NCBI GenBank assembly: GCA_963751075.1
Contig: CAVVTE010000012.1
Coordinates: 8,149-72,148 of the forward strand
Source: an uncultured Chloroflexia bacterium
Lineage (GTDB): Bacteria; Chloroflexota; Chloroflexia; Thermomicrobiales; UBA6265
Length of the DNA: 64,000 nt
Reading direction: 5' to 3'
Below the pieces are notes generated by a model that was not told the DNA's origin, did not search any database, and worked only from the letters and a program-made list of their open reading frames with translations. A program made the position numbers and the translations under genes. Positions within the stretch are counted from its first letter, which is position 1. Every line of letters begins with the position of its first letter. Below are positions 4,866 to 44,280 of this stretch, piece after piece.

Positions 4866-4923
4866 GTTTAGGATGCAATCCGCTCTGGTCTTCGCTGGCC
4901 GGTGGCCTTAGCTCGCCAGAGGG

Positions 4924-5852: not shown

Positions 5853-6049
5853 GCTGTTGTCTGTCCTTCTTCACTACCTGATCGCGCGGGGCTGCCGCCA
5901 CCGGCTCCCTCGTCCGCTGCTACCCGGTGCACTTGGTCCGTCTTGCCACTACCCCTGCACCCACTCTATCCCGGCGTAAGAGACCGCGGCGGTCAGGAAT
6001 CGGCCCTCTTCATCGACCGCGACCGTCCGGACACTCTTTGTCACTTGAT

Positions 6050-9595: not shown

Positions 9596-9916
9596 ATTTC
9601 ACGGGCCAAGGCACGTTATTCACACGTCTCCGCACCGGCCAACCGATACCTCCGCAGTGTCTGGCCGGGGTTCAATCCCGCCTTTCACGGGTTCGGGGGA
9701 GAAGAAGGCTACATCCATGAGAAGTTCCGGCAAGCGGGCGGATGGTCCCTGTGTCTGCCCTGGTTACGCTGGGTCCATCGCTTCAACCGCCCCTCCGGCG
9801 TTCCCTACCCCCTCTACATCGAAGACAAGCTGCGGAACTACATCTTGCGGAACTACATCTTCGGGTTCACCGAGCTCCGACTCGACCCCACCCCAGCACT
9901 GAAGCACTTCGCGTAG
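9596..9916 (+). pseudogene. C-terminal fragment of a glycosyltransferase-like gene (GFGGEEG motif), no credible N-terminus
   Basis: ORF 9422..9916 ends FNPAFHGFGGEEGYIHEKFRQAGGWSLCLPWLRWVHRF..., resembling the WGWGGEDxE region of GT-A galactosyltransferase-type enzymes. Contains a 15-nt in-frame tandem duplication (LRNYI x2). Confidence 0.3.
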
Positions 9917-10012
9917 CACTTCCCGCCAGCGACGATTGCGGCGGTGGCGCGAGAGGCGCTGGAAAGTGGCATCAGCGCTCCTCCGGAATCAGCGTTGGCC
10001 GGAGTCCCCGCG

Positions 10013-10287
10013 GGCATCAGTCCAGTAACGCCAGGTGTGGGATAAGGAGAAATCTCTTCACGCCACGGTGAATGACCCCAGTTGGTCACCGTCCGAGGTG
10101 CCCGTTCTTTACGACCGTGGACGAGCCGGTTGGCCGTCTGGAGAGATCTCGGGTCTCTCTCAAGGAGTGAGAAAGGAAGGTAGGGATGGGCGCGAGCACT
10201 TCGCCCGCAATCCCGTGGCCCGAACCCCTCCCAGTGTGCCGCCGCACCGCCTGCCCGATGGCTGCCTGCAAGGAGCGCGGGACGTGA
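10013..10287. ncRNA. conserved non-coding block, copy 2
   Basis: Aligns with 4568-4834 from GGCATCAG onward; the flanks upstream of that point are unrelated. Confidence 0.3.
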
Positions 10288-10318
10288 AGAGGCCAGCGCT
10301 CCTCAGGCGCCGGCCTCT
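10288..10318. terminator. hairpin homologous to 4835-4865 (one arm substitution)
   Basis: AGAGGCCAGCGC / GCGCCGGCCTCT with the same loop. Confidence 0.45.
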
Positions 10319-10377
10319 GTCTTAGGATGCAATCCGCTCTGGCCTTCGTTGGCCGGTGGCCTTAGATAGCCAGGGAC

Positions 10378-11319
10378 CTAATCTCGCTTAATGCATACGC
10401 CGTTCACGCACACTGCGACATTCGGGCCCCAGTATTCGTCGCAGTCTTCCTGCCCTTCAGAGCGGCAGTCGGCCAAACATGCCCCGAGGACACAGAACTC
10501 CGGGAATGCGCCGCCTAGCTGGCAGTCATTGTCGGCATTGCACGACGTGAATACATAGTCGCTCGGATCGAAGACGCAGACGTCCTCCGTGAACTCAGAG
10601 CTCTCGTTGCCGTCTTCGTTGCAGACCAACGGCTCGAGGTCGGGGTTTGCAGTGGACAAGATATTTTCGCAGTCGGCGTTTTCGTCGCAGGCGACCTGGC
10701 CAACGCAGCGGCCATTGCTATTACAGAACCCAAACCCAGCCCGGCACTGCTCTAAGCTGGTGCAGTTGACGCACTGGCCGGTGGCCGTGTCGCAGACCAG
10801 CCCGGCGTTATCCCCAACGCAGCCCGCGTTGTTGCAGTTGAACCCGGCGGCGGCGGTGGCGGCGCGACGCACTGGCCGGTGCCGGTGTTGCAGACGTTCG
10901 GCGCGTCGCACTGAGTGCTGTTGGTGCAGTTCTGGCATTGGCCGCTGATGCAGACCCGCGGGGCGCACTGCGAGTTATTCGTGCAGGCCGATAGGAGCAG
11001 GCGTCGCACAGCCACTGACGCCGGTTGGCAGCGACCCTTGTAGGCACAGGGATTGCGCCGCAGGAGTCTTCTTGGCCTTCTTCTTCTCTTTCTTCTTGAT
11101 CTGGCAGGTGGCCGGGATCCGCACTCGCACAGATGCAGATCCGGATCTTCTTTCGTCGTTGTTGTTGTTGTTCTTCTTGGCGCCGGCCTCCTCGCGGGTG
11201 AGGCTCATGCCCGTGGCGCCGGCGACTGCGCCGGCCACCAACCCCCGCAGGGCCGTGAGACGGCTGACGCGGGTGGTGCCGAGGCGCTTGATCAGTTGAT
11301 CGAACTGGGTCCCGTCCAC
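10378..11319 (-). pseudogene. Cys-rich secreted protein family member 3 (recent paralog of member 2) with several frameshifts
   Basis: GTG start gives MDGTQFDQLIKRLGTTRVSRLTALRGLVAGAVAGATG. The expected RKKIRICICASADP, KKKEKKKAKKT, CTNNSQCAPRVCISGQC and C-terminal segments lie in three different frames (ORFs 10975..11319, 10808..11704, 10752..11015, 10378..10968). Confidence 0.7.
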
Positions 11320-11570
11320 TCTGTGTCCACCCTTTCTCGGTGAGCGATGGTGGGGGTCGCCCGCAGTGGCTCCCCATCCTCTCCTTGAATCCTCTCCTAC
11401 GAGACGTGTGCTCCTCAGGGTGCCCGGGCCCTCCTATTCCCGCACCCCATCTCGTCGCCCTACCCGCCCGCGTGACCGCGGACGGTACCGCACACGATGC
11501 CGAGGTCAATGACCATGGTGCATCAAACCACGCACCGAGCCATCGACCGAGACGGTCCATGTACACTAGT

Positions 11571-11806: not shown

Positions 11807-12572
11807 GTGACGATCATGGACCACTTCCCCAGGGTGGGCGAGGAGCTGCTGAGCGCGGACGACGTCGCCCGCTACCTCGAGCTGGAGCCGGTGACCATCT
11901 ACCGCTGGTGCCGGGAGGGGCGCCTGCCCTGCATGAAGCTGGGCAAGGTCTGGCGCATCCGCCGCACCGCCCTCGAGACCTTCCTGCGCCGGGCCGAGCA
12001 GCCCCGGACGCTGACCGCCCATCTGGGCGCCTTCTTCGCCGTGCCCGACCAGGTGCTCGCCGTCGCCGAGGACGCGGCCCTGCTGGCGCGCCTGGACGCC
12101 GCCGTCTTCCAGGTCGCCGAGGCGCGCGACGCGCTGCTGGTCAAGTTCTACGACCCCACGATGGCGCCGCGGGAGGAGCTGCGGGCCGGCTTTCGGCGCG
12201 AGGGACTGGAGATCGAGCGGCTGGAGGGGGCGGGGCGCTTCCGCTGGTGCCCGGCGGGCGACCCGGCCGGCGCGGTCGCCTCCCTGCGCCATCTCCTGAG
12301 CGAGGAAGGCTCGGCGGGACGGCCGGTATGGGTCGTCTTCGACTGGCTGGGAGAGCCAGAGTTGGACGCGGCATTGCGCCAGCAGGCGGAACTGGCCGAT
12401 CTGGTGGCGACGTACCCGCTTGGTGGTCACGACCGGGGTGGTGGCGCCGGCGCCGCAGGAGTGGCCGTCGCCGGAGTCCCAGTGGCAGCTGTTGGGATCG
12501 TTGCGCGGCGTCATCCGCTACGCGTCGACGGGTCTCCTGTTGAGTCGGGTGGTCTCGTCGCTCGAGGCGTAA
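11807..12572 (+). pseudogene. excisionase/MerR-type HTH fused to a MEDS-like (DcmR-type) domain; apparent frameshift near 12415
   Basis: N-terminus is LLSADDVARYLELEPVTIYRWCREGRLPCMKLGKVWRIRRTALETFL. After ...ATYP the listed frame turns Gly/Ala-rich. Frame 0 instead reads LVVTTGVVAPAPQEWPSPESQWQLLGSLRGVIRYASTGLLLSRVVSSLEA* and ends at TAA 12570-12572. Confidence 0.6.
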
Positions 12573-12641
12573 GGCCAGGGGTCTCGCCGCGCGAGGCGTA
12601 AGCCAAGTGGTACCGCCGCTCGAGGCGTAAGCCCAACGGTG
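12555..12641. repeat. 3 x 29-nt imperfect tandem repeat, each unit carrying ...GAGGCGTAAG (the stop-codon region of the HTH gene)
   Basis: Anchor GAGGCGTAA occurs at 12564, 12593 and 12622. Confidence 0.8.
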
Positions 12642-12708
12642 ACCCGAGCACAACCGGGGACGTGGGCCGACACCTGTCGCACCCCCGTCTCGACGATCGT
12701 CGCCGGCA

Positions 12709-12762
12709 AAAACGGATGCATCCTTTGCACCGAGCACTCCCTATCCCCAGCCCTGCTCCCTA
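12709..12762. repeat. direct repeat of 11588-11640 (contains the GGATGCATCC half of the bipartite motif, lacks ACTACACC)
   Basis: CGGATGCATCCTTTGCACCGAGCAC is identical in both copies, and similarity continues ~25 nt further. Confidence 0.6.
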
Positions 12763-12932
12763 TGAACGCCCCTCACTCCCAACCGCCACTCAGCGAGTGG
12801 GAATGAGGGGCCGTGAACACACCGACGGCGCGCCCGAAACGATGCGCGCCGTGGGCAAGATGTCAGATTCCGCGTGTCCTGGCGCGCTCCCTCGCGCCGG
12901 TCGTTGGTCAGTTACGGGCCACTGATCGGTGT

Positions 12933-12962
12933 GGGTCGCGATTCTCGCGGGAATCGCGACCC
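12933..12962. terminator. 11-bp hairpin (GGGTCGCGATT / AATCGCGACCC) followed by GTCCTTCTT, downstream of Cys-rich gene 4
   Basis: Inverted repeat read from the sequence. Confidence 0.4.
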
Positions 12963-13043
12963 GTCCTTCTTACACCCACCGTACGAGAGAACTGAGCCCC
13001 AGCTCCGAGTGAGCATCTGCGCGACCCGCTCCCTGATCGTCCA

Positions 13044-13919
13044 TTACACCGCCGCCCGACAGAACTGCGCTCCGGCTCCTGTGGTAGCGGGATCACACGC
13101 TCCAGAGCAGCACCCTGGGTTCGTCCCACTGGCTGGGCAGCCGCCCGGAGCAGGATTCGCGTTGACTACGCAGCAGCGGCCGTCACCCGGCGCTCCGGTA
13201 GGAGTTTCACAAATCATGCCCAGGCCCGGCGGGTCTGTTGGGCAGCATGTACCCAGGCTGTTTGCAGCGGTTAATACGCATGTCTCGGTTGCGAGCGAAC
13301 AGCAGACATCGGTCGCACCATTTTCAATGCATGTCCGGCCCTGGCAGCATGTGCCCTGCGTGCCAGGGGTCGTGCACGTCGCGCCACCGGACCGGCACGT
13401 CGAACACTCGTTGGCGGTGTCGGCGAGTGGTCCCGTCGTGGACCCACCGGCGTTACAGATCCCGGAGCAGCACTGCCCATCCGCGGTGCAGGCCGCGGTC
13501 AGGGCCAAGCAGTCCTCCTCGTTACAGGCATTCAGATTCGGTTTGCAGGTCCCGGCCTTCTTGCTCCCCGGTGAGCAACAGATTTCCCCGGGCTTGCACG
13601 CCCCGCCGCATTCCGGCGGCGGTGGTGGTTTCGGCGTCTTGACGCACTTGCCCTTATAGTCATACGGGTGCTGTCGCAGGTGCCGCCTGGCCTTTTTCTT
13701 CGAGAATCGCTTGGTAACGCAGCCGATCTGCTGGGGATTGTTGTCACCACAATGGCAGATCGTCCGTTTGCGCCGGTGGGCCTCGGTCTCCTCAGGCGCG
13801 AGGCTCGCGCCCGTCAGCGCCGCCACGGCTCCCGCGGCCAGGCCCTGCAGCACCCGCAGGCGGCTGAGCCGCGTGCGGCTGAGACCCTTGATCAGGTTAT
13901 CAAACGTCGTCCCGTCCAT
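13044..13919 (-). CDS. Cys-rich secreted protein family member 4 (intact)
   Basis: MDGTTFDNLIKGLSRTRLSRLRVLQGLAAGAVAALTGASLA...TICHCGDNN...KKKARRHLRQHPYDYKGKC, then a Pro run and a >30-Cys Gly/Thr-rich domain. A single open frame of 291 aa. Confidence 0.8.
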   Translation of the reverse strand: MDGTTFDNLIKGLSRTRLSRLRVLQGLAAGAVAALTGASLAPEETEAHRRKRTICHCGDNNPQQIGCVTKRFSKKKARRHLRQHPYDYKGKCVKTPKPPPPPECGGACKPGEICCSPGSKKAGTCKPNLNACNEEDCLALTAACTADGQCCSGICNAGGSTTGPLADTANECSTCRSGGATCTTPGTQGTCCQGRTCIENGATDVCCSLATETCVLTAANSLGTCCPTDPPGLGMICETPTGAPGDGRCCVVNANPAPGGCPASGTNPGCCSGACDPATTGAGAQFCRAAV

Positions 13920-14041
13920 TGCTTTCTGGTCCTCTCATCGTCACCGTCGGGCTGTGTCGGCTGGCCCTCATCGGCCATCCATTGATTTCTGGTCTTTTCG
14001 TCACCGTCGGGTGTGTAGGGTGGCCCTCATCGGCCGTCCAT
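13917..14041. repeat. tandem duplication (63 + 59 nt) of the start-codon region of Cys-rich gene 4
   Basis: TCCAT plus upstream sequence recurs at 13917, 13980 and 14039. The upstream copies read ATG GAT/GAC GGC CGA TGA. Confidence 0.8.
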
Positions 14042-14351: not shown

Positions 14352-14469
14352 AGTGATTGTAGTAAATCGGGTTCGCGCGGCCAGACTTCCCCACGGAAAC
14401 GGGTGTCACGCTTGGTTATAGTAGATCGGGTTCGCGCGGCCAGACTTCCCCGCGGAAACGGTTGTCACG
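14352..14469. repeat. 2 x 59-nt imperfect tandem duplication (intergenic)
   Basis: ATCGGGTTCGCGCGGCCAGACTTCCCC occurs at 14366 and 14425. Confidence 0.8.
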
Positions 14470-14663
14470 CTGGAGTCTCGTCGGCTCCAACGTCGCCTCT
14501 GATCCGCCGCGAGCCCGTGGTGGATCGATGGACTGTTGGTGATCGCTCGGTCCGGCGGCAGAATGGCTCGAGGTGGAGCAGATTGTCGAGCAGCGCTGCT
14601 CGAAACACTGTCGATGCAATCTTCGCGCTGTTCAAAGCGCCAGCGGCGCGGCCGGGAGAATTC

Positions 14664-15218
14664 ATGGTGCTGTTCCGACACATTCAAGGGCTGGTGCTCT
14701 GGAGCCTGCTGACGGCGTTGCTGGCGTTCACTGTGGTGCCAGTGGCGGCCCAGAATATTGGGTACTTCGGCAAGAATCGGCTGGAGTTCGCGCAAGTCGA
14801 CTCAGATTCGCTCCCGGATGCGACGGGAACCGGCATCGTCGACTACAAGGGCGGCAAGGAGCCGTCGTCGCAGTGGCGGGCATCATTTCGATTTACGGGG
14901 CTTGAAGCGAGAGCAAGCTATACCGTCGTAGTCAAAGGCCGGTTTGGCGACCGGGGCTCCCCGGAAGAAGATGTCCTTTCCCCGTTGTGCTCATTCACGA
15001 CCGACGCCGCTGGGGAGGGGAGCTGCTTCTGGTATTTCCGGGGCCTGGCGCGGCTCAATCTGGTGCAACTGCGTGCAGGGGACGAAAGCGGCTCCCGGGT
15101 GCTGGAGGCGAGCCGCGCTGGCGAGCTCGGCTCGATCGAGACAGAGCCCAACCGCTTCTCGCCGGGCGGGGAGATCCCAGCGCACAAGAAATCCCAGAAC
15201 GGCAGGGATTCCCAATAA
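14664..15218 (+). CDS. secreted hypothetical protein (signal peptide)
   Basis: ATG at 14664 follows GGGAGA. N-terminus is MVLFRHIQGLVLWSLLTALLAFTVVPVAAQN. No family recognised. Confidence 0.6.
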   Translation: MVLFRHIQGLVLWSLLTALLAFTVVPVAAQNIGYFGKNRLEFAQVDSDSLPDATGTGIVDYKGGKEPSSQWRASFRFTGLEARASYTVVVKGRFGDRGSPEEDVLSPLCSFTTDAAGEGSCFWYFRGLARLNLVQLRAGDESGSRVLEASRAGELGSIETEPNRFSPGGEIPAHKKSQNGRDSQ

Positions 15219-15428
15219 GGGGGGTCCGCCCGCACCCCCTGGCTCGGCAGACCCAGAACGGCAGGAATTCCCAATGAGGGTGGGTGCGCCCGCACCCCCG
15301 GTTCGTCAGACCCGGAACGGCAGACACTTCCAATGATGGTGGGTGCGCCCGCACCCCGGTTCGTCAGATTCGGAACAACAGGAATGCCTAATGAGGGGGA
15401 TGCGCCCGTACCGAGGATCGTCAGACGC
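15195..15428. repeat. 4 x 58-59-nt tandem array; each unit repeats the last codons plus a stop (TAA/TGA) of the preceding gene
   Basis: Anchor GAAC(G/A) occurs at 15198, 15257, 15316 and 15374 (GAACGGCAG in units 1-3, GAACAACAG in unit 4). Units end ...CCAATAA, CCAATGA, CCAATGA, CTAATGA. Confidence 0.85.
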
Positions 15429-15466: not shown

Positions 15467-16468
15467 TCAATCGATGCCGGCAGGTGGGATGAGTAGCGCT
15501 GGCAAGGGTGGCGGCAGGGCCGCGATTTCGGGTGAGAACGCTCCGCCAAGCACCATATCAGAGGTGGGGACGGCGCTTCCCGTCTGTGGCTCGGCAGTGA
15601 GGGCGACCCCGACATAGTCGGTGAAGGGACCGGGAGTCTGGAGTAACGCGCGAATCTCGCCGTCGGCTGCGGCGGGCAGCAGGCCGGCGCTCTGTTGCGT
15701 GTTTTGCGTCGTGAACAACCACACCTGATAGCGCTGATCGTGCGGCAGCACCGGCAGCCCGTTGGCGACCAGATACACCTCACGTCCTGTCGGCTCGGCG
15801 AAGACGACGCCGCCCGCGGCCACCGGCAGGTCACTGTCATCCAGCGGGTAGGCCGTGGCCGGATCACTCACCAGGGCGGAGATGTGATCATCCTCGATGA
15901 CCGCGTTGCGCTCATCGTAGCTCCAGGCCCCAAGTCCGCTGACCAGGAAGATCGCCGCCGATGCCGCCACGAGCGCCCAGCGTGGGGGCGGTTGTCCAAA
16001 CGGCAGACGGCGGCGGCTGTCGGCGTCGGCGTCCAGCCGCTGCCCAACCTCGTCGCTCGGATGCGGCCCAGCAGTAACACTGGCGGGAATTACCTCCCGC
16101 TGCCCGACCTCGCCGCTTGGTTGCGACTCAGCACTGATACTCGCAGCAATTACCTCCCGCTGCCCAACCTCGCCGCTCGGATGCGGCCCGGCAGTGACAC
16201 TCGCAGGAGTTAGCGCTTGACTGTTGGCGGCTGGACGTTGGGTGGCCGCCCGCTGGAGGATTGAGTCGCGCAACCAAGGTGCGGGTGGGGGAACAGCAGC
16301 GAGCACGCCGAGGACGTCCATCGCATTGTCCAGCTCGCGGCGACAGGTGGGGCAGGTGTCCAGATGCCGGGTGACTCGGCGCAGGCTGGTCTCGTCCAGT
16401 TTTCCCAGGACGTAGTCAGGCAGCAGGGCAACGATCGTGAGATGATCTCTCGTGGCCGTGTCTAGCAT
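15467..16468 (-). CDS. anti-sigma factor (zinc-finger HxxxCxxC N-domain, one TM segment, RskA-like C-domain)
   Basis: Starts MLDTATRDHLTIVALLPDYVLGKLDE...HLDTCPTCRRELDNAM, with TM segment WALVAASAAIFLVSGLGAW. Lies directly downstream of the ECF sigma gene. Confidence 0.75.
   Translation of the reverse strand: MLDTATRDHLTIVALLPDYVLGKLDETSLRRVTRHLDTCPTCRRELDNAMDVLGVLAAVPPPAPWLRDSILQRAATQRPAANSQALTPASVTAGPHPSGEVGQREVIAASISAESQPSGEVGQREVIPASVTAGPHPSDEVGQRLDADADSRRRLPFGQPPPRWALVAASAAIFLVSGLGAWSYDERNAVIEDDHISALVSDPATAYPLDDSDLPVAAGGVVFAEPTGREVYLVANGLPVLPHDQRYQVWLFTTQNTQQSAGLLPAAADGEIRALLQTPGPFTDYVGVALTAEPQTGSAVPTSDMVLGGAFSPEIAALPPPLPALLIPPAGID
16038..16210. repeat. 2.9 x 60-nt in-frame tandem repeat inside the anti-sigma gene (20-aa units PSGEVGQREVI.AS..A..)
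   Basis: TGCCC(A/G)ACCT occurs at 16041, 16101 and 16161. Confidence 0.85.
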
Positions 16469-16523: not shown

Positions 16524-17288
16524 TCAAACACTTCGCCAGCCTGTGTCGATGCCGAGCGCCGGCAGCGCCTCACGGAGGGTGCAGAGGGCCCGGCGCATCC
16601 GCGACTTGACGGTGCCGAGCGGCTCGCCCAGGATCGCCGCAATCTCCGACTGACTATATCCCGCCGCGTACAACGCGAGCACGGCACGCTGAGCCGGCGG
16701 CAGCTGGTCGAGCGCGTGGACTAGCCCGGCATCGCGGACCGCGCACCACGCGTCTGCTGCTGGATCGGGCCCCGGTTCAACGCATCCAGCATAGGCGCTG
16801 CCGTCTGGATCGGCGTCCGCGTCCCGGCCCTGCAGCTGCGGCCGCCGCCGCCGGCGGCGCAGCTCGTTCAGCGCCAGGTGGTGGGCGATTCCGTGCAGCC
16901 AGCAGCGGACCGAGCCGCGGGCCTCATCAAAGGTGTGGGCCTGTTGCCAGGCGCGGAGGAAGACCTCCTGCAGAAGCTCCTCGGCCGTCTCTCGATCGCC
17001 GACGATGCGTACGAGCAGCGAGAAGACGACCCGGACATGGCGGTCGTAGAGTGCGCCAAGCGCCTCGGTTTCGCCGGCCACGAGCGCGGCCATCAACGCG
17101 TCATCCGGCACATCGTCGTGCGGCAGTGCGCTAAGCGATTGAGCCGGATCACCGCCAGGAGCCGGCGGCACGATCCGCAATCGCGGCGTTTCTGGGGCTG
17201 TGGGCGCTGCTGGCGCCTCGCCGGTGGGGTCACGCTGGTGGTGCTGACTCACGTTGCCCAGTCCGATGGTTGGATCGTTCGAGGTCAC
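16524..17288 (-). CDS. ECF-type RNA polymerase sigma-70 family factor with an N-terminal extension
   Basis: Region 2 reads LYDRHVRVVFSLLVRIVGDRETAEELLQEVFLRAW. Region 4 reads LPPAQRAVLALYAAGYSQSEIAAILGEPLGTVKSRMRRAL. Start codon is GTG. Confidence 0.85.
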   Translation of the reverse strand: MTSNDPTIGLGNVSQHHQRDPTGEAPAAPTAPETPRLRIVPPAPGGDPAQSLSALPHDDVPDDALMAALVAGETEALGALYDRHVRVVFSLLVRIVGDRETAEELLQEVFLRAWQQAHTFDEARGSVRCWLHGIAHHLALNELRRRRRRPQLQGRDADADPDGSAYAGCVEPGPDPAADAWCAVRDAGLVHALDQLPPAQRAVLALYAAGYSQSEIAAILGEPLGTVKSRMRRALCTLREALPALGIDTGWRSV

Positions 17289-17382
17289 TCGGTTACTCGG
17301 CGGCCACGGCTTTGTAGCATAGTCCGATGGTTGGATCGTTTGAGGTCACTCGAGTTACTCGGCGGCCACGGATTTGTAGCAT
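17260..17382. repeat. tandem duplication (61 + 62 nt) of the sigma-factor start region (first 9 codons plus ~34 nt upstream)
   Basis: AGTCCGATGGTTGGATCGTT occurs at 17260 and 17321. The upstream copy encodes an 18-aa uORF (17293-17349, MTSNDPTIGLCYKAVAAE*) that ends 4 nt before the real GTG. Confidence 0.85.
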
Positions 17383-17452
17383 ATCAGGATTTCGCGAACC
17401 TCACGCCTTCGGCATCCCGCGGGATACGCGTCAAGACCGATAGATGACATTG

Positions 17453-17568
17453 ACGAGACTATCGAGGTCGGCATCATTCGCCGTCCATGTCTGGCGGGCC
17501 AAGCAGATTGGCGAGAGTATCGAGATCGGCATCATTCGATGTCCAAGTCTGGTGGGCAAAGCAGCTGG
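17453..17568. repeat. 2 x 58-nt tandem duplication; on the minus strand each unit ends a reading frame with ...PPD(L/M)D(I/G)E-TGA
   Basis: TATCGAG(G/A)TCGGCATCATTCG occurs at 17460 and 17518. Confidence 0.8.
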
Positions 17569-17809: not shown

Positions 17810-17925
17810 ACCGGAATCAGCTATGCAGCGTGCGACGAGCCCTGGAAATGCGGCATTCAGCTCATCAACCGGGATCAGCTATGCAGCGTGCAACGAGCCC
17901 TGGAAACGCGGCATTCAGCTCATCA
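17810..17925. repeat. 2 x 58-nt tandem duplication
   Basis: ATCAGCTATGCAGCGTGC occurs at 17816 and 17874. Confidence 0.85.
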
Positions 17926-17985: not shown

Positions 17986-18103
17986 GGAGGCACTCCGAGA
18001 GGTCCAACCTGCCGCGTGCTTCGAGATCCTGGGCCAGGGCTTTAGGAGGCACTTTGAGAGGTCCAACCTGCCGCGTGCTTCGAGATCCTGGGCCAGGGCT
18101 TCG
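17986..18103. repeat. 2 x 59-nt tandem duplication
   Basis: GGAGGCACT...GGTCCAACCTGCCGCGTGCTTCGAGATCCTGGGCCAGGGCTT occurs at 17986 and 18045. Confidence 0.85.
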
Positions 18104-20350: not shown

Positions 20351-20584
20351 AGGCGTGCCTTCATGCCGATGCCACGAGGCCCGCGTCATCTGACTGAAGC
20401 GGACAGGTGAGGCGTGATTCATGCCGATGCCACGAGGCCCGCGACACGTGACTTGGAGCGAACCGGTGAGGCGTAGCTCATGCTGGTGCCAAGAGGCCCG
20501 CGTCATCTGACTGGAGCGAACCGGTGAGGCGTGGCTCATGCCGATGCCACGCGGCCCGCGTCAACTGATTGGAGCGGACAGGTA
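20351..20584. repeat. 4 x 58-59-nt imperfect tandem array (intergenic)
   Basis: Anchor CATGC(C/T)G(A/G)TGCC occurs at 20362, 20420, 20479 and 20537 (CATGCCGATGCC in units 1, 2 and 4; CATGCTGGTGCC in unit 3). Units abut with no unique spacers. Confidence 0.85.
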
Positions 20585-20630: not shown

Positions 20631-21617
20631 GTGCACGGGACTAACAGTGGGCCCGGGTGGGGCCGCCGCATCACTCTGGAGCGAATCGAGGCAGCGGCGG
20701 CTGGCATCGATCCTGTCTTCCTGAATACCCCGCAATGGATCTGCGAGTCGCTCGGTGAGGAGCTGGGCGCTCGTGTTGCGCTGAAAGCTGAGACGCTCAA
20801 TCCGATTCGTTCCTTCAAAGGACGGGGCGCGGATTGGCTCGTGCAGCATCTGCCACCCCGGGCCTCGCTGATGTGCGCCTCTGCCGGCAACTTCGGTCAG
20901 GCAATGGCCTACGCCTGCCGGGCGCGAGGTGTGCCGCTGGCGGTCTACGCGGCGGAGACCGCGAACCCGTTGAAGATCGCGCGCATGCGGTCCCTGGGTG
21001 CACGGGTCGTGCTCGCCGGTGAAGATTTTGACGCCGCCAAGGCGCTGGCGCGCGAGGAAGCGGCGCGAGAAGGGATTCGCTTCGTCGAGGACAGCCGAGA
21101 TCCCGAGCCAACGGAGGGTGCGGGCACGATCGGCCTGGAATGGCTCAGGTTCCCGGAGCGGCTGGATGCCCTCCTCATCCCGCTCGGCAACGGGGCGATG
21201 CTGGCCGGGATCGCCACGGTGATCAAAGCGCGTCTGCCCGGGACTCGCGTCGTCGCGGTTGGAGCTGCCGGCGCGCCGGCGATGGTCGAGTCACTTCAGT
21301 CGGGACGTCTCGTCACCCACGACGGCATCGACACCATCGCGGACGGTATTGGGGTGCGGATCCCGGTGCCGGAAGCTCTGGAGGATCTGCGCGATCTGGT
21401 CGACGACCTTCTCCTGGTGCCGGATGATTGCATCGTCGACGCCATGCGTCTCTTGCACAGGCACGCTGGGGTCGTGGCCGAGCCATCGGGCGCCGCCGGT
21501 CTTGCTGGTGTGCTGCAGGAGCCTGAGCGCTTCTCGGGAATGACTGTTGGTACGGTGATCTGCGGCAGTAACCTCACCCCGGCGCAGATGCGAGAGTGGC
21601 TCGACGAGCCATCGTGA
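20631..21617 (+). CDS. PLP-dependent threonine/serine dehydratase-family enzyme (Trp-synthase beta fold)
   Basis: NPIRSFKGRGADWLV contains the PLP lysine. Also has SAGNFGQAMAYAC and a C-terminal GGN-type loop. The start codon is uncertain. Confidence 0.7.
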   Translation: MHGTNSGPGWGRRITLERIEAAAAGIDPVFLNTPQWICESLGEELGARVALKAETLNPIRSFKGRGADWLVQHLPPRASLMCASAGNFGQAMAYACRARGVPLAVYAAETANPLKIARMRSLGARVVLAGEDFDAAKALAREEAAREGIRFVEDSRDPEPTEGAGTIGLEWLRFPERLDALLIPLGNGAMLAGIATVIKARLPGTRVVAVGAAGAPAMVESLQSGRLVTHDGIDTIADGIGVRIPVPEALEDLRDLVDDLLLVPDDCIVDAMRLLHRHAGVVAEPSGAAGLAGVLQEPERFSGMTVGTVICGSNLTPAQMREWLDEPS

Positions 21618-21720
21618 CCCGGAAGCGTCCCACGCGTAGCGGTTTCGACGCGTTCGCTATAGACGAGCCATCGTGACCCGTTAGCGTCCCGCGCGTAGCG
21701 GTTTCGACGCGTTCGGTATA
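21603..21720. repeat. 2 x 59-nt tandem duplication that includes the last 4 codons and the stop (GACGAGCCATCGTGA) of the dehydratase gene
   Basis: GACGAGCCATCGTGACCCG occurs at 21603 and 21662. Confidence 0.85.
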
Positions 21721-21733
21721 GGGGGAGAGGATC

Positions 21734-22675
21734 GTGCTCGCGTTGCATGGCGTGGCCAACATCAACGGCGAATTCGTCCCCGCGCAGGAAGCGAGCGTCT
21801 CGATCTTCGACAGCGGCTTCATCGGTGGCGTGTCGGTGTTTGATACGCTGGCGTGCTCGATCTTCGATGAGTGGCGTCATTGGTGACGTCTCGGTGTTTG
21901 ATACGCTGGCTTGCTGGGAAGGTAGGCTATTCAAGCTTCCTCAACATCGGGCCCGCTTCGAGCGCTCGGCGCACGCGGCAATGATTCCGCTCCGCTGCGC
22001 AGGCGCAGAGTTGGAAGCTCTCATCGTGGAGACGACCTGCCGCGCGGGATTGCGCAACGCATACGTGCAGGCTATCGCCACCCGCGGCCGGCGCCCGTCC
22101 CCGTCCATGCCGTCGCACGAGCCGACCCTCATCGTCTACGCCATTCCCTACCTTAGTCTCTGGCCGGAGGAGAAGGCGGACACGGGGATCAGCCTCGTGA
22201 TCCCTTCGATCCGGCAGTGGCCCGCCGCCGTCGTCGACGCCAAGATAAAGAATTTCAACCGGATGCATACCCATCTAGCGCGGCTGGAGGCGGACCTCGC
22301 GCACGCGGACGATGTGGTGCTGCTCGATGACCGGGGACTGCTGACCGAGAGCCGCGGGGCGAACGTCTTTCTCGTGCGCGGCGGCGCGCTCTTCACCCCG
22401 CGAGGCGGCATCCTGGAGGAATCACCCGGGAGACCGTCTTCGAGATCGCCGCCGAGTTGGGCATCTCTGCCGAGGAGCGCGATCTCACCCCCTACGATCT
22501 CTACACTGCCGAGGAAGCTTTCCTCTGTAGCACCGCTGGGGGGATTTTCCCCGTAGTGGAAGTTGATGGTCGACGTGTTGGCAGTGGTCTTCTCGGGCCG
22601 GTGACCACCACGATCCGGAATCGCTACTGGGAGCGTCACTTGAGCGGTCCGGATGTGACGTGGGTGCTGCCCTGA
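21734..22675 (+). pseudogene. class IV (branched-chain/D-amino-acid) aminotransferase-like gene disrupted by an internal 57/58-nt tandem duplication and a second frameshift near 22420
   Basis: GTG at 21734 follows GGGGGAGAGG. The sequence reads ...SIFDSGFIGGVSVFDTLAC then SIFDE..VIGDVSVFDTLACWEGRLFKL. The middle part is ORF 21747..22556. The C-terminus GISAEERDLTPYDLYTAEEAFLCSTAGGIFPVVEVDGR is ORF 22457..22675. Confidence 0.7.
21800..21914. repeat. 57 + 58-nt tandem duplication inside the aminotransferase coding sequence
   Basis: TCGATCTTCGA occurs at 21800 and 21857. Confidence 0.85.
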
Positions 22676-24077: not shown

Positions 24078-25028
24078 GTGAAGATGGAGCTCGCTATCGA
24101 TGCCACGGGGATAGAGCGTCGTTTCGGCTCGGCCGTGGCCGTGGACGGTGTCGATCTTGCGGTCAGACGCGGCGAGATCTACGGGTTCCTCGGTCCAAAC
24201 GGCGCTGGAAAGTCGACGACCACCCGCATGCTCTGCACCTTGACCGCCCTGAATGGGGGGCGGGCGACGGTCGCCGGGTATGACGTGACACGGCAACCGG
24301 GGCAGGTCCGGCTGCGGATCGGCGCGGCGCTGCAATCGGCGGCGCTCGATATTCAGCAGACCGGCGTCGAATTGCTTCGCCAGCAAGGCCGCTATTACGG
24401 CCTCTCCCGAAGCGATATCGAGAGCCGCCTGACAGAATTGCGAGATCTGGTCGACATCGGCGATGCGCTCGATCAGCGGATCAAGTCGTACTCCGGCGGC
24501 ATGAAGCGACGGGTCGATCTGGCCGCGGCACTGATCCACAATCCGGAAGTGCTGTTTCTCGACGAGCCGACGACGGGTCTCGACCCCGCGGCCCGCGCCA
24601 AGGTCTGGGATGAGGTCAAGCGGCTGAACAGCATTCTCGGGATGACGATTTTCCTGACCACACAATACCTGGAGGAGGCAGATGCCCTGGCCGACCGGGT
24701 CGGGATCATCGATCGCGGTCGGATCATCGCCGAGGGTACCCCGGCCGAATTGAAGCGCTCGATCGGCGCCGACGTAGTCACGGTCCGTGTGGACGACGTG
24801 ACACTCGCCGCGTCGACCATCGCGGCGCTTCCCGGTGTCGACAGCGTCGAGGTCCGCGGCGATGAAATCCTCGCCGCCACCGCCGACGGCCCGGGGACCG
24901 TCTCGCCGATTGCCGTTGCCCTCGCCGGGGACGGAGTGCGCGTGCGCTCGCTCACCCTGCGCGAGCCGAGCCTCGACGACGTCTTTCTCACCCTGACCGG
25001 ACAGCACCTGGAAGGAGAAGCCGCGTGA
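24078..25028 (+). CDS. ABC transporter ATP-binding protein (ABC-2/DrrA-type exporter)
   Basis: Walker A is GPNGAGKSTT, signature is YSGGMKRR, Walker B is LFLDEPTTGLD. AAGGAGAGG lies upstream. Confidence 0.85.
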   Translation: MKMELAIDATGIERRFGSAVAVDGVDLAVRRGEIYGFLGPNGAGKSTTTRMLCTLTALNGGRATVAGYDVTRQPGQVRLRIGAALQSAALDIQQTGVELLRQQGRYYGLSRSDIESRLTELRDLVDIGDALDQRIKSYSGGMKRRVDLAAALIHNPEVLFLDEPTTGLDPAARAKVWDEVKRLNSILGMTIFLTTQYLEEADALADRVGIIDRGRIIAEGTPAELKRSIGADVVTVRVDDVTLAASTIAALPGVDSVEVRGDEILAATADGPGTVSPIAVALAGDGVRVRSLTLREPSLDDVFLTLTGQHLEGEAA

Positions 25029-25894
25029 GTGCACTGCAAACCCCGACCAGACCCCAAGAATCAGGGTTTGGCGTCAGTGAATGGGAATCGGCTCGGGTAG
25101 TTCGTCCCGTCGGGACGATCGAGGCCCGGCCTGCCGGATTCTGGGCCGACTTGTGGTCGGTGGCGATTCGCTCGCTACGGGCATTGCCGCGGGAGCCGGA
25201 GCTGTTGATCCCGTCGCTGATATTTCCGATCTTTTTCTTCGTGGTGAATATCGGGACGTTGCAGGACTTTACGCAACGTGGCATCCCGGGTCTCGACTAC
25301 CGGGCCTTTCAGCTCCCGAGCGCGATCGTGTTTGCCGTCACTGGCGTCTCGCGCGCTCATGCCGTCGTGACCGACATCCAGTCGGGCTATTTCGATCGCA
25401 TGTTGATGACTCCCGTGCGGCGGCTGCCGTTGTTGGTGGGGATGATGGCGGCCGATTTCGTCCAGATCATCATGCTCGCCATTCCGGTTGTCCTGCTCGG
25501 AGCGATTGTCGGCGTGCGTTTCGAAACAGGGCTGCTCGGGCTGCTGCTCTTCTTGCTGATATCTGGCTGCTGGGGGCTCGCGTTCACCGGCTTCTCGTAT
25601 GCGATCGCGCTCAAGACGGCGTCGGCCGGGATGGTCAACGCCAGCTTCATCCTGTTCCTGCCGTTTGCCTTCCTCACCACGGCGACGCTGCCCCTGGAGG
25701 CGCTGACCGGGTGGATGGCGATGGTTGCTCGATTCAACCCGATGACCTATCTGCTTGCCGCGCTGCGCTCCCTTCTTTACGGTGGCTGGCAACCGGCCCT
25801 GCTCCTGCAAGGGGCGGCAGCGATCCTGCTCGTCGGTGTCGTCAGCATTGGGCTGGCATTGGCCGCGCTACGAGGTCGCGTGAGCCGCGGCTAG
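25025..25894 (+). CDS. ABC-2 type transporter permease
   Basis: Overlaps the ATPase stop by 4 nt. Six hydrophobic segments, ABC-2 membrane-protein-like. Confidence 0.75.
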   Translation: MSALQTPTRPQESGFGVSEWESARVVRPVGTIEARPAGFWADLWSVAIRSLRALPREPELLIPSLIFPIFFFVVNIGTLQDFTQRGIPGLDYRAFQLPSAIVFAVTGVSRAHAVVTDIQSGYFDRMLMTPVRRLPLLVGMMAADFVQIIMLAIPVVLLGAIVGVRFETGLLGLLLFLLISGCWGLAFTGFSYAIALKTASAGMVNASFILFLPFAFLTTATLPLEALTGWMAMVARFNPMTYLLAALRSLLYGGWQPALLLQGAAAILLVGVVSIGLALAALRGRVSRG

Positions 25895-25962
25895 GACACC
25901 ATCAGCATTGGGCTGGCATTGGCTGCGTTGCGGGGACGCGTGAGCCGCGGCTAGGACACCAT
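25843..25962. repeat. 2 x 60-nt in-frame tandem duplication of the last 16 codons + stop + 9 nt of the permease gene
   Basis: CAGCATTGGGCTGGCATTGG occurs at 25843 and 25903. There are 5 nt differences, all synonymous; both copies encode SIGLALAALRGRVSRG*. Confidence 0.9.
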
Positions 25963-26189
25963 CGTCATCATTCCGAGCAGTAAAGGATCTCGTCTCGATG
26001 CGGACGTCGTCCGCAGCGAGGCGAGATCCTTTATCCATGCCTCACGGCTTGTAATACGGTGATTGCGGCCCTTGCCAGGTTCCCCCGCGGACCACGATAT
26101 TCTGCAACGTTGGAGCGACTGCAAGTTCAAGGATCAGACTCGTCAATCGTTGACTTGGCCGCCGTCCACGCGGGCATCTTTCCTCTACC

Positions 26190-31252: not shown

Positions 31253-32305
31253 ATGAGTAGGAAACGCGTCGCTCGTCTCTTGGTCAGTCTCGGCATGCTC
31301 GTTGCGACAGTGGGTTCACTCACGCCAGTCGCGATGGCACAGGAGGCTACGCCAGCAGCCGGGTGCGCAGCAGCGACGCCGGATGAGAACCTCGCGGTCG
31401 TGCACAGGTTCTTCGAGGAGGGCGTCAACCGCGGCGATCTGGCTTTCTTTGATAGCGTCGCGTCGCCCGAGATCATCTATTACGGCGCCACCGTCGGCGA
31501 CGAAAGCGGGTTGGAGGCGCTGAAGCGGATCTACGGTGAGGCGCTGACCGGTTTCCCGGGCATCCAGTACACCCTTCTTTCATCGGTCGCCAGCGAGGAT
31601 GTGGTCGCCGTTCGCTACGGCGTTGAAGGCGTGCACAGCGGCGATTTTCGCGGTCTGCCCCCGACCGGCAACACCATCACCTGGAATCACAGCGCATTCG
31701 CGCGGGTGGAGTGCGGGCAGATCACCGAGATGTGGGCCGAGGTCGATCAGCTCGACCGGCTCAGGCAGTTCGGCGTCCTTGCCGAAGAAGGACCGGCGGC
31801 ACGGATGGCTGGACTGCCAGCACATCCCGCGGCCACCCCGCAAGCGGCTGATGACCCCGCCAGCTGCGACCCACAAAGCCCCGAGGACGCAGTCGCCATA
31901 GTCGACCGGCTCCGCGCCGAGGTCTACAACGAAGGAAACGTCGACGTCATGCCGGAGATCTTCGCCGAAGGCTATCTGCATGGATCGGCGAATGGGCCGG
32001 ACGCGATCGGGATCGCCGAAGGTGCGAAGCAGATCAGCGGCTTCCTGACCGCGCTGCCTGATCTGGAATGGACGTTTGACCAGGTGATCGCCGAGGGGGA
32101 CCAGGTGGCCGTGCGGTGGACGATCCGCGGGACGCACGACGGCGACCTGCTCGGCTTCGCCGCGACCGGGAACCCGGTAGAGTACACGGGCATCTCGTTC
32201 TTTACGGTCCAGTGCGGAAAGATCGTCGAGTTTCAGACCGAGATGGACGCCGCCGGCCTGCTGGAGCAAGTCGGGGCGCCAGTGCGGAGCGACGAGAGTC
32301 GGTGA
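31253..32305 (+). CDS. secreted protein with two SnoaL-like (ester cyclase) domains
   Basis: AAAGGGAGA lies before the ATG at 31253. Signal peptide is MSRKRVARLLVSLGMLVATVGSLTPVAMAQE. There are two NTF2-like repeats (first domain NLAVVHRFFEEGVNRGDL...). Confidence 0.65.
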   Translation: MSRKRVARLLVSLGMLVATVGSLTPVAMAQEATPAAGCAAATPDENLAVVHRFFEEGVNRGDLAFFDSVASPEIIYYGATVGDESGLEALKRIYGEALTGFPGIQYTLLSSVASEDVVAVRYGVEGVHSGDFRGLPPTGNTITWNHSAFARVECGQITEMWAEVDQLDRLRQFGVLAEEGPAARMAGLPAHPAATPQAADDPASCDPQSPEDAVAIVDRLRAEVYNEGNVDVMPEIFAEGYLHGSANGPDAIGIAEGAKQISGFLTALPDLEWTFDQVIAEGDQVAVRWTIRGTHDGDLLGFAATGNPVEYTGISFFTVQCGKIVEFQTEMDAAGLLEQVGAPVRSDESR

Positions 32306-32444
32306 GTCGGTGAGTCGGTGAGTCGGTCAGGGAGCAGAGAGTCGATGCGTCGATGATATGCCAAGGTGGCGAGTCAAGTCTTGGACTAGGCTTCCTCATA
32401 GTGAACTAGCTAACCGACTTGCCGACTGACCGACTCACCGACTC
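32296..32444. repeat. octamer repeats (GAGTCGGT)n at 32296-32330 and their inverted copies at 32414-32444, flanking ~83 nt of lower-GC DNA
   Basis: GAGTCGGTGAGTCGGTGAGTCGGTGAGTCGGTCAG pairs with CTGACCGACTCACCGACTC. Confidence 0.7.
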
Positions 32445-38493: not shown

Positions 38494-39714
38494 TTACCCG
38501 GCGCCAGGACCGAGAAGTGCCAGAGCGGCGAGCGCGTAGGCCCGTGTCGCCTCCAGCACCTCGTCGATGCCGACCCACTCGTCGGGGACATGCGCCAGGC
38601 GGGGATCGCCCGGGCCATAGATGATGGTCGGGGAGCCGGCCGCGGCGAAGTGCCGGCCGTCCGATGCCATGCTGAAACCCGTCAGCTCCGTCGAGAGCCC
38701 GAGATATTCATTCGCGGTCAGCATGGCCCGCGCCAGACCGCCGTTGGGGTCGCTCATCGTCGCCGCGCGCATCTCCGGACCCGGGCTCACCGCGACCGTG
38801 ATTCCGGAGATTCCGGAAACGGCCTCTTCGGCGATGGTGCGGATCTCGGCCATGGTTGCGGCGGGATCCTCGCCGGGTATGAGCCGGCGATCGATGAAGA
38901 TGGCGCAGCGGTCGGGAACGACATTCGTCTTCACGCCGCCGTCGATCATGTTGACCGAGGCGGAGGAGGGCATGAAGTACGAGTGTGTCCGCTCGGCCAG
39001 CCGAGGTTGCAGCTCCTGCCCCAGGGCGACGATAACCCGGGCCATCCCCTCGACCGCATTGGCGCCTTCCCAGGGCAAGGCGCCGTGCGCGGTGCGGCCG
39101 CTGACGACGATATCGACGCCGGCGCTCCCCTTCTCACCAACGGCAACTCGGTTCAGCGTCTGCTCGCCGACGATCACCCCGTCCGGGCGCAACCCGGCCG
39201 CGGCAATGAGATGGAGCGCTCCCGCCCCGGAGGTCTCCTCATCCGCGACCTCGGTGACCACCAGACGCCCGCGCAGCGGTACTCCGGCGCGAGCCAGCGC
39301 GATGGCGCCCATCACCTGGGCGGTGACACTGGCCTTGTCGTCGCCCGCGCCGCGCCCATAGACGCGGCCGTCGGCGATCTCGGCGGCAAACGGCGGGTGC
39401 GACCAGGCCTGCTCATCGCCGGTCGGCACCACGTCGAGATGGGCATTGAAGCAGAGCGTCGGACCATCGCCCGTGCCCCATTCCGCGACGATGTTTGGTT
39501 TTCCTGGCTCGTGCTCGAGGGAGCGCACGGCGAATCCCGCCGCCACGAGGGGGCGCTCGCAGACCGCCGCCGCCTCGGAGACATCGCCGGGGGGATTGAC
39601 CGACGGGGCGCGCACGAGCTCGCGCAGGAAGGCGACCGTCTCGTCAGGATCGATGGCGGCCAGGACGGCGCGGGCGTCGTCATCGCGGATTCCGACCGGG
39701 AACGATGCGTCCAA
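38494..39714 (-). CDS. M20-family metallopeptidase (ArgE/DapE-like deacylase)
   Basis: Contains NAHLDVVPTGDEQAWSHPPF, GRGAGDDKASV and EVADEETSG. TTG start follows AAGGAG. Confidence 0.8.
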   Translation of the reverse strand: MDASFPVGIRDDDARAVLAAIDPDETVAFLRELVRAPSVNPPGDVSEAAAVCERPLVAAGFAVRSLEHEPGKPNIVAEWGTGDGPTLCFNAHLDVVPTGDEQAWSHPPFAAEIADGRVYGRGAGDDKASVTAQVMGAIALARAGVPLRGRLVVTEVADEETSGAGALHLIAAAGLRPDGVIVGEQTLNRVAVGEKGSAGVDIVVSGRTAHGALPWEGANAVEGMARVIVALGQELQPRLAERTHSYFMPSSASVNMIDGGVKTNVVPDRCAIFIDRRLIPGEDPAATMAEIRTIAEEAVSGISGITVAVSPGPEMRAATMSDPNGGLARAMLTANEYLGLSTELTGFSMASDGRHFAAAGSPTIIYGPGDPRLAHVPDEWVGIDEVLEATRAYALAALALLGPGAG

Positions 39715-39815
39715 GCGGCGTGCTCCTTATCTACTTGCGATCCACGTGGCGTTCGCGGGAACGAGGCATCCAAGCGGCGTGCTCCTTGTCTACTGGCGAT
39801 CCACGCGGCGTTCGG
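39698..39815. repeat. 2 x 59-nt tandem duplication of RBS + TTG start + first 6 codons of the M20 gene
   Basis: GGGAACGA(T/G)GC(G/A)TCCAAGCGGCGTGCTCCTT occurs at 39698 and 39757. Both copies encode LDASFP, differing only as GAC/GAT and GCA/GCC. Confidence 0.85.
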
Positions 39816-43509: not shown

Positions 43510-43582
43510 GCCGGCCTAGCTCAGTTGGTAGAGCAGCTGTTTCGTAAACAGCAGGTCTCCGGTTCGAGTCCGGAGGTCGGCT
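43510..43582 (+). tRNA. tRNA-Thr (anticodon CGT)
   Basis: Cloverleaf folded by hand. Acceptor is GCCGGCC/GGTCGGC, anticodon loop TTCGTAA, T-arm TCCGG TTCGAGT CCGGA. Confidence 0.9.
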
Positions 43583-43612
43583 CCGGCCCCGCTGAAAGCG
43601 GGCGAACAATAA

Positions 43613-43696
<84 letters not shown>

Positions 43697-43814
43697 CCGC
43701 GGACGGCGAGGGTGGCGGGGTCGCTGGGTAGTAGGGTAACGGGGTAGTTTCTTCTCCCTGTCACCTTGACACCCCGCCACCCTGCCACCCAAAGCGTTCG
43801 GCACATTGACAACC

Positions 43815-44171
43815 GAGGTATGGGGTGGGCAAGGATGGTCGCTGGCGTTTCGGCGCCAGAGGAAAGTCCGAGCTGCACAGAGCGTGGGTGCCCGGTGAAA
43901 GCCGGGGAGGCGTGCGGGAGACCGCGCGTCGACAGTCCAGATTGGCGCGCGGCGTGCCGCGCGAGAGCAACAGAGACCAGACCGGCGGGCAACCGCCGGG
44001 GTGAAAAGGGCAATCCTCCCCGCAGCAATCTCCGAATCGGCCGCTAGCAGGTTGCTCGCCGAGGCCGGAAGTCGAGAGCCGCCACGAAGGCGACGACGTG
44101 GCCGGTCCCTTTTGGGGCCGAGAGAGATGACCATCGAGAACAGAACTCGGCTTACTCTCCCCCCCATCCTC
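43815..44171 (+). ncRNA. rnpB: RNase P RNA, bacterial type A (ends approximate)
   Basis: GAGGAAAGTCCGAGC at 43859-43873 and ACAGAACTCGGCTTAC at 44140-44155 are the universally conserved P4 strands. P2 pairs GGATGGTC with GACCATC. P1 candidates are 43815-43830 and 44156-44171. Confidence 0.85.
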
Positions 44172-44174
44172 CAT

Positions 44175-44251
44175 GGTGCCTATAGCTCAATTGGCAGAGC
44201 GCTTGTCTGTGGAACAAGAGGTTGCGGGATCGTGCCCCGCTAGGCACCCCA
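44175..44251 (+). tRNA. tRNA-His (anticodon GTG) with encoded G-1 and CCA
   Basis: G-1 then GTGCCTA acceptor, anticodon loop CTGTGGA, T-arm GCGGG ATCGTGC CCCGC, then TAGGCAC C CCA. Confidence 0.85.
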
Positions 44252-44280
44252 GGAAATTGGCGTAAATACAAGAAATTCGT

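Follow-up and report, generated by a model that had tools for sequence, protein, structure and literature searches.

Mycobacterial variable number tandem repeats (VNTRs) and mycobacterial interspersed repetitive units (MIRUs) are tandem units of about 51-77 bp that lie in or between genes, and they offer a first point of reference for the tandem arrays described here. Our analysis covers a 64,000-nucleotide (nt) stretch of DNA (the window) on contig CAVVTE010000012.1 of an uncultured Chloroflexia bacterium, which carries at least 15 tandem arrays, 14 with a unit of 57-62 nt and one with a unit of 29 nt, and in which one array duplicates the 3' end of an ABC-2 type permease gene. The mycobacterial repeats resemble these arrays in their high-GC host, in units of tens of bases, in variable copy number and in their frequent position at operon gene boundaries, where they overlap stop or start codons as the window arrays do. 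MIRUs form one sequence family, whereas each window unit is a unique local sequence, and the window copies are 3-18% diverged in what are mostly two-copy arrays. An earlier sequence-only reading had singled out the permease duplication and a few other duplicated gene ends; it missed both the constant 57-62 nt length of the unrelated units and the broken genes nearby, and the full set of constant-length duplications points to a larger phenomenon than that reading had described.

Other described systems share single aspects of the pattern. Borg repeats are near-perfect and come in many unit lengths, whereas the unit length in the window is nearly constant and no array is perfect. What the two have in common is that pervasive local tandem repeats, described for Borg elements (PMC9879509), arise independently at many sites and are absent in relatives or hosts. 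A diversity-generating retroelement likewise has a second copy of a gene 3' end just downstream, as at the permease, but the differences at the permease are silent rather than diversifying and the units have half the length usual for such elements. Short tandem duplications of any sequence, over a broad range of sizes, are produced from flaps in yeast rad27/FEN1 mutants and by fill-in and joining of paired nicks. These are sometimes flanked by microhomology, as are two of the window arrays (13915-14041 and 62705-62828), and they serve as an analogy of mechanism only, with no enzyme defect or nickase identified for the window. Known false duplications in assemblies are kilobases long or lie beside runs of N, and they are blind to gene boundaries. 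Like the window arrays, false duplications and duplicated flanks are tandem allelic variants of one locus in a single assembly; unlike them, the window arrays contain no N, keep a constant length, are in some cases multi-copy and follow gene ends in their placement.

Arrays of near-constant unit length

The arrays, named here by their first position, were detected with Tandem Repeats Finder (TRF) together with ungapped self-comparison and inspection by eye. They consist of head-to-tail copies without spacer, as in a tandem repeat or minisatellite of the VNTR type, and 12 of the 15 fall within 12.5-22 kb. Periods of 57, 58, 59 and 60 nt are all represented among the gap-free arrays, and units that are a multiple of 3 nt are as frequent as chance predicts (3 of 14). 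The 15 units are unrelated to one another, in that an all-against-all alignment on both strands and with circular permutation scored no better than shuffled controls. Copies have diverged in every array, by 3-18% in the two-copy arrays, through substitutions of all kinds (30 transitions and 19 transversions) that span unit positions 2-55; array 17986 differs only at positions 10-11. Three arrays of ~59 nt (15193, 16037 and 20351) hold three to four diverged copies, with divergence of up to 30%, and at 15193 identity declines with the distance between copies, from 88, 88 and 72% for neighbours to 68% for copy 1 against copy 4.

These duplications are specific to the lineage of the window among the genomes compared, which are uncultured Chloroflexia/Thermomicrobiales. 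Genome and metagenome scans gave a closest match of about 80-86% amino acid identity, and protein searches gave closest orthologues of 88-93%. The closest relative, L103, shares 77-93% amino acid identity over full-length genes and is collinear with the window over 18.1-31 kb, and for the region of the M20 peptidase gene the closest relatives are L104-L107 (91-93%). No tandem repeat with a period of 42-77 nt was found in 1.19 Mb of related loci, nor in L103-L109; altogether, about 1.27 Mb of related loci are without such an array. At every array site that could be compared the relatives have a single copy where the window has two to four, so that copy number varies among related genomes. L103 has one copy at 20351, 21603, 21795 and 25842, and 11 further orthologues (L001-L010 and L017) have one copy at 25842. 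At 39697 four relatives (L104-L107) have one copy, with a spacer between the DJ-1 and M20 genes of 133 nt as opposed to about 193 nt in the window, and at 16037 L051 has one 20-residue unit where the window has three. No report of duplications of about 59 nt in this bacterial group was found in the literature.

The positions of the arrays follow the genes. Under a conservative gene model, in which 73% of the window is coding, a random 59-nt segment would be intragenic in 69% of cases, would span a gene end in 8% and would be intergenic in 23%. The 15 arrays comprise 2 that are intragenic, 7 that lie across a gene end (start or stop codon) and 6 that are intergenic, a depletion from gene interiors with P(<= 2/15 inside) = 1.2e-5. 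Where a stop codon is included (15193, 21603 and 25842) the gene stays intact in the first copy, and where a start codon is included (13915, 17260 and 39697) it stays intact in the proximal copy. Only one array lies in an intact open reading frame (ORF), that at 16037, whose 60-nt unit remains in frame within the linker of an RskA-type anti-sigma factor. The 58-nt unit at 21795 shifts the frame of an aminotransferase gene after about codon 41. This placement is what one would expect if duplications arose at any position and the harmful ones were purged by selection. Because an assembler is blind to gene positions, the depletion in gene interiors also argues against an artefact.

The array-rich stretch begins with the 29-nt array (12551-12635, 2.9 copies, plus strand) at the end of an HTH_17 gene (11807-12601), where the stop codon lies in copy 2 and the frame is shifted. 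It is followed by a 59-nt array of 2.1 copies (13915-14041, minus strand) that comprises the upstream region and ATG GAY GG of a Cys-rich gene (13044-13919), by an intergenic 59-nt array of 1.9 copies to which no strand is assigned (14360-14471), and by four copies of a 59-nt unit (15193-15426, plus strand) covering the 3' end and stop of an ORF that ends at 15218 and then downstream sequence. The anti-sigma factor array (16037-16212, minus strand) has 2.9 copies of its 60-nt unit and encodes three 20-residue units. The next array (17260-17382, minus strand), missed by TRF, has two copies with a period of 61/62 nt and one indel, and it comprises the GTG start and first 9 codons of an extracytoplasmic function (ECF) sigma factor gene (16524-17288, assigned by Pfam) together with upstream sequence; the duplicated sigma-factor start that the sequence-only reading had listed, with TCG/TCA, exists. 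Two 58-nt arrays of two copies each and without assigned strand (17449-17564 and 17810-17925) share a gene-poor stretch without an intact gene, and a 59-nt array of two copies (17986-18101, minus strand) lies within a short remnant (..ILEALAQDLEARGRLDLSECL..) that, judged by eye, reads as a putative transposase fragment. Collapsing the three arrays at 17.4-18.1 kb restores no long ORF, the stretch being degenerate regardless.

Further along, four copies of a 58-nt unit (20351-20583, plus strand) stand upstream of a threonine-dehydratase-like (PALP) gene (20631-21617). Here a strong hairpin (GCGUGGC...GCCACGC, -24.7 kcal/mol) forms only in the gene-proximal copy (20525-20582, as compared with 20351-20524), and L103 has a hairpin of other sequence at the equivalent place (9893-9955 of that locus), which suggests that the proximal hairpin is a functional leader element and that the extra copies are decaying. 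This suggestive hairpin apart, no array unit had a significant RNA fold. A 59-nt array of two copies (21603-21721, plus strand) takes in the final 4 codons of the same PALP gene, its TGA and downstream sequence, and the 58-nt aminotransferase array (21795-21915, 2.1 copies, plus strand) lies within a class IV aminotransferase gene at about codons 21-40. Outside the array-rich stretch, a 59-nt array of two copies (39697-39814, minus strand) contains the TTG start and 6 codons of the M20 peptidase gene (38494-39714) with 41 nt of upstream sequence, and an intergenic 57-nt array of 2.2 copies, again without assigned strand, is found at 62705-62828.

Silent differences between the copies

The permease gene (25025-25894, plus strand) has a Pfam ABC2_membrane match, and its orthologues of 288-289 amino acids share its C-terminal end. 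Its TAG stop is at 25892-25894, and the last 17 codons and the stop fall within the first copy of the 60-nt unit (25842-25901, plus strand), which therefore holds the live gene end and 7 nt past the stop; the second copy, with 2 nt of shared sequence, extends over 25902-25963 on the same strand (the unit proper ends at 25961) and is a gene-end relic with five clustered silent differences. The sequence-only reading had described an in-frame duplication at exactly 60 nt, and it was right: over 25842-25961 TRF and ungapped self-comparison give a period of exactly 60 nt, no indels, five differences, 2.0 copies and 92% identity, and both copies encode SIGLALAALRGRVSRG-TAG. The differences, at unit positions 23, 27, 29, 32 and 35, produce the codon pairs GCC/GCT, CTA/TTG (2 nt), CGA/CGG and GGT/GGA, so that all five nucleotide changes are synonymous in the permease frame, again as claimed. 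Four of five consecutive codons carry a silent change, and the five changes are confined to 13 nt (P = 0.005), with the remaining 47 nt the same in both copies. The C-terminal peptide LALAALRGRV.RG is kept in all permease relatives, and any functional allele would therefore differ only silently there. When polarised with L103, L002 and L001, the derived states are CTA and GGT in copy 1 and GCT and CGG in copy 2. The patch looks, from this clustering, like a short piece of a much more diverged functional allele within a young duplication. Downstream of the relic, at 25981-26036 on the plus strand, lies a long terminator-like hairpin (the fold of 25885-26045 has -76.6 kcal/mol, z = -4.9); if this hairpin terminates transcription, copy 2, which sits between the permease stop and the hairpin, belongs to the 3' untranslated region (UTR), and it is probably an untranslated relic that is transcribed as such.

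Whether such silence is unusual depends on the null model. The sequence-only reading had set about ten of ten silent coding differences against an expectation of roughly a quarter. That expectation is the wrong one, and the ten were a selected subset: with a dead copy 2 and a live copy under selection, changes in the live copy are still filtered to silent ones, and the expected synonymous fraction is 2s/(1+s) = 0.43-0.47, or about 0.45 rather than 0.25. An excess nevertheless remains. Under this in-place model the permease array alone has P(5/5 synonymous) = 0.008-0.014. The synonymous to non-synonymous counts are 5:0 at 25842, 2:0 at 39697 (LDASFP, with GAC/GAT and GCA/GCC), 1:0 at 17260, 1:0 at 13915 (ATGGA(C/T)GG), 0:1 at 15193 (D/N, plus TAA/TGA) and 5:2 at 21795 (plus two 1-nt indels), which gives a pooled tally of 14 synonymous to 3 non-synonymous differences with P = 0.001-0.006. 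The M20 start duplication listed earlier is present with both of its codon pairs, and at the Cys-rich start GAC/GAT holds while GGG/GGC, at the edge of the homology, is weak. The same reading had itself reported a counter-example near 15195, and further non-synonymous differences are found at 17986 (E/K) and throughout 16037 (many). Tabulated over the window arrays, the synonymous fraction lies above the in-place expectation, with non-synonymous differences and indels present alongside. At 39697 two derived silent changes fall in the relic copy, and the derived changes of the live copy fall only in its untranslated part; at 25842 both copies are affected, and all derived coding changes polarised with relatives at these two sites are silent. 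These data support the view that a copy pair resembles two functional alleles more than a live copy and a freely drifting dead one.

The aminotransferase array sets a limit to that view. Copy 1 at 21795 is identical to L103 at all positions where the copies differ, and copy 2 carries 7 substitutions and two compensating 1-nt indels, with F to V and G to D replacements at sites invariant among six relatives. On this comparison copy 2 is a decaying copy, not a clean allele, and the proposal that second copies come from a diverged allele, which the synonymous excess and the silent patch at 25842 support, does not hold generally. The 0-versus-9 asymmetry between the copies argues that one of them was recently replaced or is otherwise constrained. 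A 108-nt tract at 21730-21837, which ends inside copy 1, has a single mismatch (99% identity) to L103, where the rest of the gene has about 87% and other relatives about 82%, and it may stem from recent exchange with a lineage like L103, or from cross-polishing with reads that belonged to a co-occurring relative. No general mosaic of ancestries was seen at the borders of the arrays, where only 21730-21837 stands out.

Competing explanations

Our favoured reading, to which we assign about an even chance, is that the arrays are genuine lineage-specific duplications of measured length that were filtered by selection, with allele exchange in the copies; that the arrays are real in one form or another, counting also the version with in-place divergence only, we consider fairly probable. 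A sequence-independent process would duplicate local DNA in tandem at a narrow length (57-62 nt, once 29 nt). Selection would then act on the products: the gene would survive in copy 1 after a duplication over a stop codon and in the proximal copy after one over a start codon, a duplication that keeps the frame could be tolerated in a linker, and the remaining ones would be purged or mark dead genes. The silent pattern would have two parts. Selection would have filtered the changes that arose in the live copy, and, when the duplication formed or later, gene conversion or homologous recombination would have exchanged one copy with a diverged allele that was still functional. Such an exchange could be a homologous recombination ending inside one copy, since a single-copy donor would otherwise erase the array, or the duplication could have formed while diverged donor DNA was being integrated. 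By analogy with known flap and nick processing, and with low confidence, the constant length might be that of a single-stranded stretch measured by a protein and then closed by fill-in and ligation; a staggered pair of nicks could set it, or an unprocessed 5' flap of about one single-strand-binding-protein footprint, and the 29-nt array would then be a half-size class of the same length-measured process. A bolder proposal, which we regard as doubtful, is that a Thermomicrobiales-like lineage duplicates any local sequence at a protein-measured ~59 nt (half-size 29 nt), maybe in a process coupled to the import of DNA from diverged strains, in which case the two copies would differ as alleles from the start.

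The explanation that survives best beside the favoured one, a serious minority possibility in our judgement, is an assembly artefact in which two strain variants of a ~59-nt stretch were laid in series, for example at a join of reads or graph edges between strains, and in which polishing failed to collapse the copies, each attracting reads of its own strain. The observations gathered in this and the next paragraph weigh against genuine duplication. An ongoing process should yield young identical pairs too, and no array has identical copies; an assembler would have merged identical overlaps. The differences between copies are silent and allele-like, as strain variants would be, and the arrays occur in this contig alone and not in the 1.27 Mb of related loci, several of which come from one shared European Nucleotide Archive (ENA) assembly. 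The allele exchange would be read from few sites, and we know of no bacterial mechanism for duplications of 57-62 nt. False duplications that arise from heterozygosity are reportedly a described class of assembly error. Scaffold joins with duplicated flanks are another kind of error on record (PMC7111523).

The quality of the contig bears on the same question. Unpaired 1-nt indels relative to L103 occur in the aminotransferase gene at 22418 (GGG to GG), in an M19 dipeptidase gene at 23635 and 23758 and in MutL at 29709, and protein identity to L103 on both sides of each frameshift is 84-93%; the stretch from 31 to 42.5 kb showed none. These four frameshifts in otherwise well-conserved genes, within the same 8 kb as the aminotransferase gene split by its 58-nt array, show that the consensus is imperfect. 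That three of nine neighbouring genes carry fresh breaks is explained more easily by consensus errors than by biology, the alternative being very recent pseudogenes; if true, the MutL break would imply a mutator lineage. NCBI and ENA records place the proteins of the window on a contig of 146,685 nt. ENA assembly ERZ25039504 contains L103, a 90%-identity cluster mate of the IS1380 transposase of the window and a contig of MFD02840.bin.2.193, a Microflora Danica genome bin with Flye-style contig names. Microflora Danica assemblies were built from Nanopore reads alone, with metaFlye and a single Medaka round (PMC12313526). The window thus probably stems from a Nanopore-only metagenome assembly. 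Should this be right, single reads span each array, which makes a simple concatenation of short pieces unlikely, and room is still left for a duplication at a draft join that strain-sorted polishing kept.

Several features of the arrays speak for real duplication instead. An assembly error should fall independently of genes, and the arrays are depleted in gene interiors and enriched across gene ends, with the unit in frame in the only intact ORF that holds one. Three arrays have three to four copies that differ by up to 30%, with identity at 15193 falling with distance, and the excess of transitions over transversions (30 to 19) is likewise in keeping with real arrays. The gap-free periods run from 57 to 60 nt rather than following one fixed k, and the differences lie anywhere in the unit and are not confined to its centre as serial bubble arms need. 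Arms of a de Bruijn graph bubble placed in series, or one fixed k-mer overlap, would leave central variants with at least k-1 identical flanking bases and a period of 2(k-1) plus the span; variants at positions 2-55 and the variable gap-free period rule this form of the artefact out. To our knowledge no assembler step leaves about 59 nt. Other contigs of the same pipeline are without arrays, among them two ERZ25039504 contigs with an IS1380 cluster mate, which may belong to another organism.

Genuine duplication followed by divergence in place only, with a dead copy 2 and with the silence at 25842 due to chance and to selection on copy 1, is in our view improbable. It draws strength from the expected synonymous fraction, already close to one half, and from the fact that the examples of the sequence-only reading were picked after the fact. 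The non-synonymous changes and indels at 21795, 15193 and 17986 fit a drifting copy, as does the hairpin that the 20351 array has kept only next to its gene. The model is strained by the permease array, where five of five silent changes have a probability of about 0.01 and their clustering one of 0.005, by the pooled excess, and by the aminotransferase array, in which all of the change relative to L103 has fallen on copy 2. That both copies are translated, with read-through of the permease TAG adding the extension DTISIGLALAALRGRVSRG, had been offered as another possibility and is very improbable: the 60-nt period does put copy 2 in frame and the differences are silent, but only 3 of 14 units are a multiple of 3 nt, the permease stop is TAG, TAA or TGA among relatives, the C-terminal extension is absent from all relatives compared and the in-frame copy 2 is found only in the window, and read-through cannot explain arrays at starts or in intergenic DNA.

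The remaining candidates were rejected on specific grounds. A dispersed family of the MIRU or repetitive extragenic palindromic (REP) type is ruled out by units that share no consensus beyond that of shuffled controls. A diversity-generating retroelement is ruled out by the changes at 25842 (C/T, C/T, A/G, A/G and T/A), which are not confined to adenines, and no reverse transcriptase was found among the 30 ORFs scanned with Pfam, a subset of the ORFs of the window. Target-site duplication by a transposon does not fit copies that abut without extra bases, and no element flanked by ~59-nt repeats was seen in the window. An array of clustered regularly interspaced short palindromic repeats (CRISPR), or an off-target CRISPR-like integration, is ruled out by similarity that runs through the whole unit and by the absence of spacers.

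Neighbouring features and significance

Other repeats in the window are of different kinds. A cluster of tRNA-Thr, tRNA-Leu and tRNA-His genes lies at 43510-44251, and the 3' part of tRNA-His recurs in four 60-nt direct repeats (44212-44271, 59094-59153, 60631-60690 and 63445-63504) with 73-78% identity to the reference copy, the arrangement that attachment sites of tandem integrated islands would show. GC content dips at 44-46 kb in this stretch, which also carries an Mrr-like nuclease gene (45184-46071) and an intact IS1380-family transposase gene (46823-48109). Seven diverged repeats of 75-87 nt at 61101-61736, within a minus-strand ORF (60956-62311) that has no Pfam match, look like a repeat protein rather than a ~59-nt array. 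Two tandem cyanophycin-synthetase-like paralogues (ATP-grasp and Mur ligase domains; 2-2554 and 6894-9380, about 81% DNA identity) are each followed by repeated modules of small ORFs without a Pfam match (3713-5857 and 9998-11324). The first 15 kb contain five occurrences, at 4173, 6050, 11571, 12692 and 14237, of a 37-nt motif (ACTACACC...GGATGCATC) that may be a shared regulatory element. Between two genes, a perfect (GAGTCGGT)x4 at 32296-32327 and its reverse complement (ACCGACTC)x4 at 32413-32444 (83% matches, 85 nt apart) form a long inverted repeat that is partly present in L002. The cumulative GC skew has its minimum at 12000-14000, at the edge of the array-rich stretch, which over only 64 kb could mark either a replication landmark or a place where the genes locally change orientation.

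What the arrays mean depends on their origin. If they are artefacts, constant-length diverged tandem copies together with 1-nt frameshifts form a recognisable signature, one to screen for and remove in long-read metagenome-assembled genomes before genes are called, and in the present case the aminotransferase gene would have been falsely broken and false upstream ORFs added. If, as we favour, the arrays are real, we infer that they are present on single DNA molecules, and they would constitute a natural record of a length-measured bacterial duplication process, read out after selection. They would then provide a direct map of the gene-flanking positions that tolerate 59 extra bases, and their gene-end relics could help to date events and to reveal where alleles were replaced. 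In the organism itself, such duplications would be a source of new 5' and 3' untranslated sequence and of linker repeats.

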